From positions 1-64,000 of the IMG/VR virus record IMGVR_UViG_3300037851_000831: a stretch of 64,000 nucleotides of DNA, one strand, 5' to 3'. Source of the stretch: a virus. Below, piece by piece: positions 59,090 through 60,019 of the stretch (position 1 is its first letter; each line of letters begins with the position of its first letter). The translations under genes and the position numbers were made by a program. The notes under the pieces were generated by a model. It was not told the origin of the DNA, did not search any database, and worked only from the letters and a program-made list of their open reading frames with translations.

Positions 59090-59134
59090 GAAACCTCTTG
59101 ACTTTTGGGAAAAGCGGTACATACTTATCCCTTC

Positions 59135-59452
59135 ACTCAAGTAAGTGTTCTTTTCAATTTCCATCCGGATAGGAAAGGTGCAGTAGCACCCTCTGGTAGA
59201 TCGGTCCCGAAAGGATGACTGCCAGTGGCTCCCCTCGGGGTTCAGGTCATGCATGACCACTACTGCTGGTAGTGCCTTGGAAACTATAGGGCTACCTTGG
59301 TAAGATTCATCGCGAATCCTCAAGAAGATAAGAAGACAGAGCCGCTCAGTTGATGAAGTTAATGAGGATAAGCGGAATAGGAACGACAACAACGACCCCC
59401 ATCGAAATCGTTCGCCCTCGAAAAAGGGAAAGCGGTGAATCCCTTACCAAAA
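59135..59452 (+). ncRNA. Structured non-coding RNA (~300 nt)
   Basis: Promoter 59098, boxA-like TGTTCTTTTCAA, GCAGTAG/CTACTGC multibranch, TTGGTAAGATTCATCGC/GCGGTGAATCCCTTACCAA long helix. Confidence 0.65.
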
Positions 59453-59514
59453 TAAAAAAACAAAATCTATCTGAAATGGCTTGACTTTCTGTTTCGAGTA
59501 TCCGATACTCAACA

Positions 59515-59986
59515 CGTTCTTTGATCACTTTCACTTTACGACGCCTCACAGCAATAGTAAAAACTATAAATGCAAACTGCCGCAAGGCATGGTTGCCCCG
59601 AACCATAAGAGGGGATAGGGGATATGGCTCCCGACGAACTGCCTAGCGTCGTGTAATTTCAATTTCTCCATTACGCCGCGAAATGGCAAATGGATTGTGG
59701 GTCAGTTCGGCTTTCATCCGATTTTACCTCCGAGTCAGGTCTGTTGTCGCGCTAACATCCCCGCTAAGGGCGATACTTGCGAGAACCGTTAACCTTCGGA
59801 GCGACCCCGTGTTAGACACACTGATAGCACCCTGCATGACCCGTGTGATTGGTCTGTAAGTCGGGCGGGGTTCTGATTCCCCGTAAGGCGTTGGCTGAAA
59901 AGGCTATATGATAAATGAGATAGATTCAAGTCGGGTAGGTGTGGAACGGTAACCAGTCCGGTCCAAATTCGAATCGCCTATTCGCC
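59515..59986 (+). ncRNA. Structured non-coding RNA (~470 nt)
   Basis: Promoter 59481, boxA-like CGTTCTTTGA, many hairpins including a T-arm-like CGGGG-TTCTGATT-CCCCG, strong terminator, no ORF. Confidence 0.65.
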
Positions 59987-60019
59987 AAAGACCCCGAAGG
60001 GACGCCTTCGGGGTTTTTT
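59987..60019 (+). terminator. Intrinsic terminator
   Basis: ACCCCGAAGG/CCTTCGGGGT + T-run. Confidence 0.9.

Follow-up and report, generated by a model that had tools for sequence, protein, structure and literature searches.

Gene neighbourhood and transcription signals

The stretch studied here, positions 59090-60019 (930 bases), holds two promoters, two boxA-like elements, a series of predicted RNA folds and an intrinsic terminator. Coordinates refer to the window, that is, the first 64 kb of the 96.8-kb IMG/VR record IMGVR_UViG_3300037851_000831, which is estimated to be ~47% complete. The record encodes a contractile tail sheath, PhoH and both an Rnl1-like and an Rnl2-like RNA ligase; the nearest cultured match of the tail sheath, at 47% identity, is that of Microcystis phage Mel-JY01. 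A look-up of the record's radical SAM gene in the Atlas did not point to a host. Up to ~57 kb the genes lie on the minus strand and thereafter on the plus strand, and the stretch sits in the plus arm, 2-3 kb past the point near 57.1 kb from which the two gene arms diverge.

Among the neighbouring proteins, one of 191 aa has relatives in actinophages, without synteny. No relatives were found for the 140-aa and 98-aa proteins that served as synteny anchors. The 71-aa neighbour has one relative, 35% identical, for which a scan of viral contigs gave no match. The gene directly downstream of the stretch has a 29%-identical homologue in a complete jumbo phage of ~40% G+C, an IMG/VR record of 297,258 bases (L136 / L141) that is estimated to be 100% complete. 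Several early genes are common to the jumbo phage and this 50% G+C phage (29-57% identity), and in the former they are clustered beside the tRNA region. The 297-kb phage is a useful outgroup for the lineage of this phage.

The first-pass annotation had seen no credible ORF in the stretch, and we reached the same conclusion: with the standard code, no plus-strand ORF exceeds 58 aa, and nothing convincing opened in 59090-60019 when TAG was read as Gln or TGA as Trp. When scored by a log-ratio of codon usage, for which 22 long genes from this phage were the training set, all ORFs in the stretch fell between -0.31 and +0.035, versus +0.10 to +0.38 for seven flanking genes. A minus-strand ORF of 156 aa overlaps the genuine 71-aa gene upstream.

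Both promoters of the earlier annotation were confirmed on the plus strand: P1 at 59098-59125 (-35 TTGACT, 16-nt spacer, -10 CATACT) and P2 at 59481-59509 (-35 TTGACT, 17-nt spacer, -10 GATACT). Each matches the sigma-70 consensus at 9 of 12 positions, and both are of the phage's own promoter kind. Over the whole record, 104 sites are promoter-like. At 63 of them, a start codon that opens an ORF of at least 40 aa lies 30-45 nt from the T of TTGAC, and we conclude that the phage expresses most genes as leaderless single-gene cassettes. Such cassettes as the expression mode of most genes are unusual for a T4-like myovirus. The distances have a sharp mode at 35 nt, which marks position 35 as the transcript start. 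Neither P1, with a transcript start predicted near 59132, nor P2 has a start codon at the leaderless position. The P2 element GCTTGACTTTCT is kept in a relative with a different spacer.

An A-rich spacer directly upstream of P2 (59451-59480, plus strand) resembles an UP element. We found no terminator in this interval between RNA 1, the product of the P1 half, and P2; transcripts from P1 therefore probably read into RNA 2. At the far end, the strong terminator noticed previously was borne out as a 10-bp G+C-rich stem (59991-60014) with a 4-nt loop and a run of six T (59991-60019, plus strand), a hairpin that a consensus-based terminator scan did not list. Directly beyond it, the next promoter has its TTGAC at 60032 and its leaderless gene begins with ATG at 60069.

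Folded domains, RNA abundance and relatives

RNA 1 is predicted to fold into two domains with a short hairpin (59268-59296, plus strand) between them. Domain 1 (59180-59266, plus strand) is a four-way junction with three hairpins (z = -2.76). The GCAGTAG/CTACTGC junction helix, proposed from the first reading of the sequence, spans 7 bp (59180-86 / 59260-66) and is present in both the minimum-energy and the centroid folds. In domain 2 (59297-59450, plus strand), a 17-bp helix with a 2-nt bulge encloses three hairpins, and the fold has z = -2.70 when computed on 59301-59446. This long helix had been described as pairing 59277-59293 with the region around 59432-59450; it exists with the partner 59432-59450, but its 5' strand is 59297-59313, 20 nt farther to the right. 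For RNA 1 as a whole, z was -3.75 on the plus strand versus -1.46 on the minus strand. That RNA 1 is a folded RNA is well supported by these predictions, and its 17-bp helix (59297/59450) could plausibly serve as an RNase III-type site.

RNA 2 is supported as folded in parts only, again by prediction. Its 5' domain (59538-59655, plus strand) is closed by ACGACGC / GCGUCGU and has weak fold support (z = -1.34); the local pairing of ACGACGC (59538-44) with GCGTCGT (59646-52) that had been put forward is present in the predicted fold. The domain includes a hairpin, UGCC-GCAA-GGCA, with a GNRA loop. The 3' part (59688-59990, plus strand), which was recovered as an RNA contig, comprises, on the plus strand, a long irregular hairpin (59699-59808, z = -2.28), a hairpin at 59809-59830, further hairpins, among them CGGGG-UUCUGAUU-CCCCG (59866-59883), and a 3' hairpin (59930-59986; z = -2.35 when computed on 59930-59988). 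Fold energy gave no support to 59809-59906 (z = -0.20) or to 59688-59990 taken whole (z = +0.22), and the minus strand often had a similar fold energy, so that the strands are not told apart for most domains.

The tRNA-like features previously ascribed to RNA 2 did not hold up. The duplex that would bring its 5' and 3' ends into a tRNA-like closure has an energy of -23 kcal/mol, versus a mean of -26 for shuffled leaders. The supposed T-arm at 59866-59883 has a 5-bp stem and the 8-nt loop UUCUGAUU, which is no T-loop, and ARAGORN at default thresholds reported no tRNA or tmRNA in 59090-60030. Lowering the thresholds to 80% brought up three tRNA-like folds and a permuted tmRNA in RNA 2, which we regard as false positives; the permuted tmRNA has an implausible 26-aa tag. 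A 10-mer common to the stretch and the phage's other non-coding locus, ACGACGCCTC, is at chance level: ~1.3 shared 10-mers are expected between the two loci, which have several other words of 10-11 nt in common.

Parts of the stretch are present in eleven public runs, four of which were aligned to it; runs with only small shares of its sequence words (X4, X7-X11) were set aside as evidence. In a root metatranscriptome, a 247-nt contig at a depth of 168 covers 59150-59396, and a 403-nt contig at a depth of 61 covers 59699-59816 and 59826-59906 before continuing into 84 diverged nt. Neither flanking gene was covered in this metatranscriptome, in which the relative may carry other genes at those places. 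These are Logan contigs, which give no RNA ends, strand or true level, and the evidence that the stretch is transcribed as abundant RNA in relatives is good but indirect. The earlier picture of two tandem RNAs stands insofar as there are two abundant species; their extents, about 59150-59396 and 59688-59990, differ from those of two primary transcripts, suggesting that the transcripts are processed.

Short contigs in DNA runs from soil, outdoor and viral samples showed 0-2 differences over 59268-59418, 59500-59619 and 59738-60021; in DNA runs, the promoter spacer before 59500 and the segment 59907-60011 were replaced by diverged sequence. The conserved cores are about 59236-59418, 59500-59619 and 59699-59906. 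Across 59236-59396, the root RNA contig has no differences, and two 151-nt DNA contigs from other samples have none over their length, as would suit an RNA. The seven listed differences in RNA 1 lie within 40 nt and lack three-base periodicity; the next 160 nt are identical.

Most of the differences keep helices or loop types. In hairpin 1 of domain 1 (59190-59228), 59196 G to A together with 59222 C to U turns a G-C into an A-U pair, a double compensatory change. Three further changes keep or improve a pair and are wobble-compatible (59197, U-G to C-G; 59218, U-A to U-G; 59982, G-U to G-C), and one, 59225 G to C, breaks a predicted pair beside an existing mismatch. The loop of hairpin 2 of domain 1 changes from CUCG to CACG at 59235 and remains of the YNMG type; likewise, the loop of the UGCC/GGCA hairpin in RNA 2 changes from GCAA to GAAA at 59583 and remains GNRA. 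An insertion of 109 nt replaces 59817-59825, essentially the loop of the hairpin at 59809-59830. The covariation evidence consists of a handful of changes, all from close relatives, one of which breaks a pair.

Neither RNA belongs to a described family that we could find. Rfam 15 returned no family at its gathering threshold in the stretch, Y RNA, 6S, RNase P, group I and II introns and riboswitches included. At E values up to 10, the matches were only terminator look-alikes (19-22 bits versus thresholds of 47-100), with no tRNA, tmRNA, GOLLD or ROOL among them, and split searches did no better. Searching the GenBank phages with blastn gave no homologue, and BLAST against 40 IMG/VR records related by the tail sheath yielded nothing beyond short matches due to chance or low complexity; one match, in an A+T-rich coding region, was inspected and dismissed. 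The nearest relatives by tail sheath are phages of low G+C that lack this type of promoter, and a relative by its helicase (L092) has no ORF-free gap. Exact and purine/pyrimidine-degenerate patterns of the most conserved parts were found in no viral, JGI metagenome or GTDB contigs. A covariance model of RNA 1 (59176-59300) recovered only RNA 1 itself when run on 875 kb of loci, and it had no hit in five related records, which include the complete 297-kb phage; that phage has no homologue of RNA 1 or RNA 2.

The other non-coding locus of this phage has no similarity to the present one beyond promoters. It holds a tRNA-Gly, a weak tRNA-like element and a sub-threshold wcaG-like match. The wcaG RNA-like match (48369-48473, minus strand; 38.2 bits against a gathering threshold of 42, E = 3.7e-05) lies at the end of that locus, between the tRNA-Gly and the Rnl2-like ligase gene. 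The degenerate tRNA-like element (48630-48701, minus strand) has a good acceptor stem and T-arm, a CAU anticodon-like loop and a poor anticodon stem; ARAGORN at default settings misses it, and Rfam scores it at 19 bits as tRNA-Sec.

A boxA-like leader in this and other phages

As first noticed, each promoter is followed by GTTCTTT, found at 59147 and 59516. Element 1 (59147-59160, plus strand; GTTCTTTTCAATTT) lies at about +15 of the P1 transcript. Element 2 (59516-59528, plus strand; GTTCTTTGATCAC) starts at the base where the P2 transcript is predicted to begin, 35 nt from the first T of TTGAC. The boxA of the E. coli rrn operons reads, with its flank, GCTCTTTAACAATTT, and element 1 matches it at 12 of 15 positions with one gap. 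The boxA consensus is GCUCUUUAACAA / UGUUCUUUGAAAA. Elements 1 and 2 are both close to this consensus, and the motif also has the position of a boxA, early in a long untranslated transcript, at +1 or +15 of four ORF-free units and downstream of the promoter. The same consensus can be drawn from the literature (PMC2800207). It would be unusual for a boxA to occupy the first bases of a transcript, which counts against the boxA reading. In the predicted fold, part of element 1 pairs with 59173-59178.

GTTCTT stands at exactly 35 nt not only at P2 but also at the two promoters that serve the other ORF-free locus (48966 and 49839, minus strand), and at 49 nt from TTGAC in the P1 unit. The claim that four boxA-like elements head non-coding units in two loci therefore stands, with three of the four at 35 nt and one at 49 nt. 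The 49.8-kb unit has an extra copy of GTTCTT 138 nt in. The 7-nt core alone is weak evidence for boxA since GTTCTTT occurs 32 times in the 96.8-kb record. Three other copies of GTTCTT come within 120 nt of a promoter; their distances from it are 60-77 nt, and two of them are inside ORFs. What is non-random is the position of the motif relative to promoters, at the head of four non-coding units, and only that position.

We scanned IMG/VR for the same arrangement (TTGAC, 18-19 nt, ATAST, 6-7 nt, GTTCTTT) and obtained at least 119 loci, of which 80, with 82 matches, were examined. A tRNA or tmRNA gene lies on the same strand within 1.5 kb in 29 of the 82 matches, and in 22 the first such gene, again on the same strand, starts only 13-33 nt after the G of GTTCTTT. 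These 22 represent at least 16 sequence clusters of phages. Among the matches listed, two stand ahead of tmRNA genes, and Rfam confirms one of these tmRNAs at 115 bits. In the complete 297-kb phage, motif-bearing promoters head tRNA subclusters. Among loci L098-L177, examples of the motif directly upstream of tRNA clusters or tmRNA are L153:3396, L149:2695 and L127:5380-5422.

Past the forced 7-mer, where bases were free to vary, the consensus was AAAAATTT, giving GTTCTTTAAAAATTT, which we take to be close to the E. coli rrn boxA and its flank, GCTCTTTAACAATTT. With AAAAATTT, the phage consensus matches the 12-nt core of the E. coli boxA at 10 of 12 positions.

About 20 further matches come from a single phage lineage and are followed there by a Shine-Dalgarno sequence and ATG; the motif is therefore also found outside RNA genes. 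A control within the loci was weak: of 36 promoter-like sites that lack GTTCTTT, 5 precede a tRNA as well, one of them with the motif present at a 5-nt spacing, against 22 of 82 with it. Thus, the enrichment is large relative to the genome-wide expectation only, not relative to promoters of tRNA regions. A promoter with GTTCTTT at the transcript start may be a general flag of phage stable-RNA units, and our literature search turned up no description of a boxA at the head of tRNA, tmRNA or non-coding RNA units in phages. The dedicated stable-RNA programme that the first-pass annotation had suggested is a reasonable inference, given that the motif heads both non-coding loci here and the tRNA or tmRNA units of other phages.

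A candidate stable-RNA operon

We consider it probable that 59090-60019 is a phage stable-RNA operon with a boxA-type leader and at least two folded, long-lived RNAs of no described family. This reading builds on the anatomy of the stretch, its lack of coding, the RNA abundance in relatives and the link of the motif to stable-RNA units, and from it Nus binding, processing and action in trans can be inferred. In the model, P1 and P2 would act as host-type promoters of an early non-coding operon in a large uncultivated myovirus, producing untranslated transcripts that end at 59991-60019 and carry GUUCUUU at or near the 5' end. By analogy with rRNA operons, the GUUCUUU leader would recruit host NusB and NusE (S10) with other Nus factors; it is established that boxA acts together with NusB/NusE when rRNA is transcribed (PMC4807359, PMC2800207, PMC10250234). 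Polymerase could then cross ~0.5-0.9 kb of untranslated RNA without Rho-dependent termination, and RNA folding would be assisted. The products would be RNA 1, with its four-way junction and helix-enclosed domain (~59150-59450), and the 3' part of RNA 2 (~59688-59990), with 59516-59687 possibly a processed leader. The RNAs may act in trans. A tRNA and a tRNA-like element nearby, together with two RNA ligases and further enzymes that act on RNA, hint loosely at a part in the conflict over translation in the host or the cleavage of RNA; that the RNAs serve specifically as, for example, a decoy or mimic is a guess that we hold to be rather doubtful.

Several other explanations were weighed against such an operon. 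The RNAs could be real and GTTCTTT could be no Nus boxA, acting instead as a start-site or initial-transcribed element (promoter strength, growth-rate control) or as a 5'-end signal for processing or a phage protein. The motif lies at the predicted +1 in three of the four units, as in the tRNA/tmRNA units of other phages, rrn boxA is normally farther from the transcript start than the motif is here, and the predicted fold leaves boxA 1 partly paired. However, the unforced AAAAATTT brings the match to the E. coli boxA core to 10 of 12, and a start-site element would leave the internal copy 138 nt into the 49.8-kb unit unexplained; on balance we judge this reading unlikely, yet one to be taken seriously. 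A lower probability attaches to a decayed tRNA cluster whose old promoters are still active and whose RNAs have no function of their own, which we regard as quite improbable. The same architecture heads tRNA clusters elsewhere, including in the 297-kb relative with its common early genes, the other locus has a degenerate tRNA-like element, and ARAGORN at 80% does propose three tRNA-like folds and a permuted tmRNA in RNA 2. Against decay, normal ARAGORN or Rfam thresholds give no tRNA or tmRNA, a canonical T-loop is missing and the RNAs are abundant; moreover, the lack of any differences over 150-160 nt and the pairing-preserving changes in relatives point to selection.

Missed small proteins would have to be drawn from several plus-strand ORFs of 31-58 aa, for example the 58-aa ORF at 59683-59859, and the start of one ORF does coincide with the start of the relative's RNA 2 contig. 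Yet the codon-usage scores of all these ORFs are typical of non-coding frames, none starts at the leaderless position of a promoter, the substitutions have no three-base periodicity, and a net +100-nt insertion in the relative falls within the 58-aa ORF and would shift its frame, leaving very little credence for translation. Equally remote, in our judgement, is a stretch that works mainly as DNA, such as a replication origin primed by promoter transcripts, with incidental folds. T4 oriF and oriG are origins of this kind, and the promoters, the A-rich tract and a location 2-3 kb from the divergence of the arms near 57.1 kb would suit one. However, self-comparison finds no repeats or iterons, composition skew does not change markedly at the stretch, and both the high depth of RNA and the changes that preserve pairing are in keeping with a functional RNA.

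For the stable-RNA operon, comparisons can be made with several known systems. The tRNA region of T4 encodes the stable species 1 and 2 RNAs (rnaC, rnaD), whose function is unknown. This T4-like myovirus resembles T4 in having small stable RNAs beside tRNAs and RNA repair enzymes (Rnl1-like and Rnl2-like here), but we found no sequence or Rfam relationship to species 1 or 2, and the present RNAs are larger, have boxA-like leaders and lie in an operon of their own ~10 kb from the tRNA. GOLLD and ROOL are associated with phages and tRNA genes. These RNAs are large and ornate (PMC12286853) and, like those described here, are abundant non-coding RNAs of phages or prophages without known function; they differ in that our stretch has no Rfam match to them even at E = 10 and that its RNAs are smaller, at ~250-500 nt, with a fold that is predicted. 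Y RNAs, including YrlA, are bacterial RNAs that mimic tRNA and are bound by Ro60 (PMC4201824). A proposed tRNA-like module in a non-coding RNA and a genome with RNA repair genes recall them, whereas here there is no Rfam Y RNA match, no canonical T-loop and no TROVE/Ro60 gene in the 96.8-kb record, itself ~47% complete.

The leaders of bacterial rRNA operons (PMC4807359, PMC10250234) are alike in their strong promoter with a partly A-rich upstream tract, in a GYUCUUU-type motif early in a long untranslated transcript, in long helices that enclose folded domains and in a stable RNA product. In contrast, the present leaders are phage-encoded and lead to products other than rRNA, three of the four units have the motif at +1, and we identified neither boxB nor boxC. 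By analogy with lambda nut (boxA, boxB, N; PMC2800207), a phage boxA RNA here might make host polymerase resistant to termination. However, nut acts on mRNA operons and needs boxB and N, whereas these transcripts are non-coding and we identified no boxB hairpin or N-like gene.

The arrangement of promoter, boxA and stable RNA is already known; the products and the phage setting are new. We tentatively propose, as a possibility that we hold below even odds, that RNA 1 and RNA 2 found new phage-specific RNA classes and that many tailed phages mark stable-RNA units with a transcript-start boxA, borrowing the host machinery of rRNA antitermination and RNA chaperoning. Few structured phage RNAs beyond tRNAs are known, almost none with a function, and these two candidates, with clear boundaries, evidence of high natural RNA abundance and no family, are targets for work on structure and function. 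If phages routinely start non-coding units with boxA, this would explain how long untranslated transcripts escape Rho, would extend Nus-factor antitermination well beyond lambdoid phages and would offer a simple flag in the sequence by which new RNA genes of phages could be found in metagenomes.

Two more promoters of the phage's type without a leaderless ORF lie on the plus strand, at 57063-57140 of the window and, beyond it, at 65566-65640 of the record. Each is followed ~60 nt on by a G-rich element (GGGTG...GGGGA/GGGGGT), and these are probably more small non-coding units.
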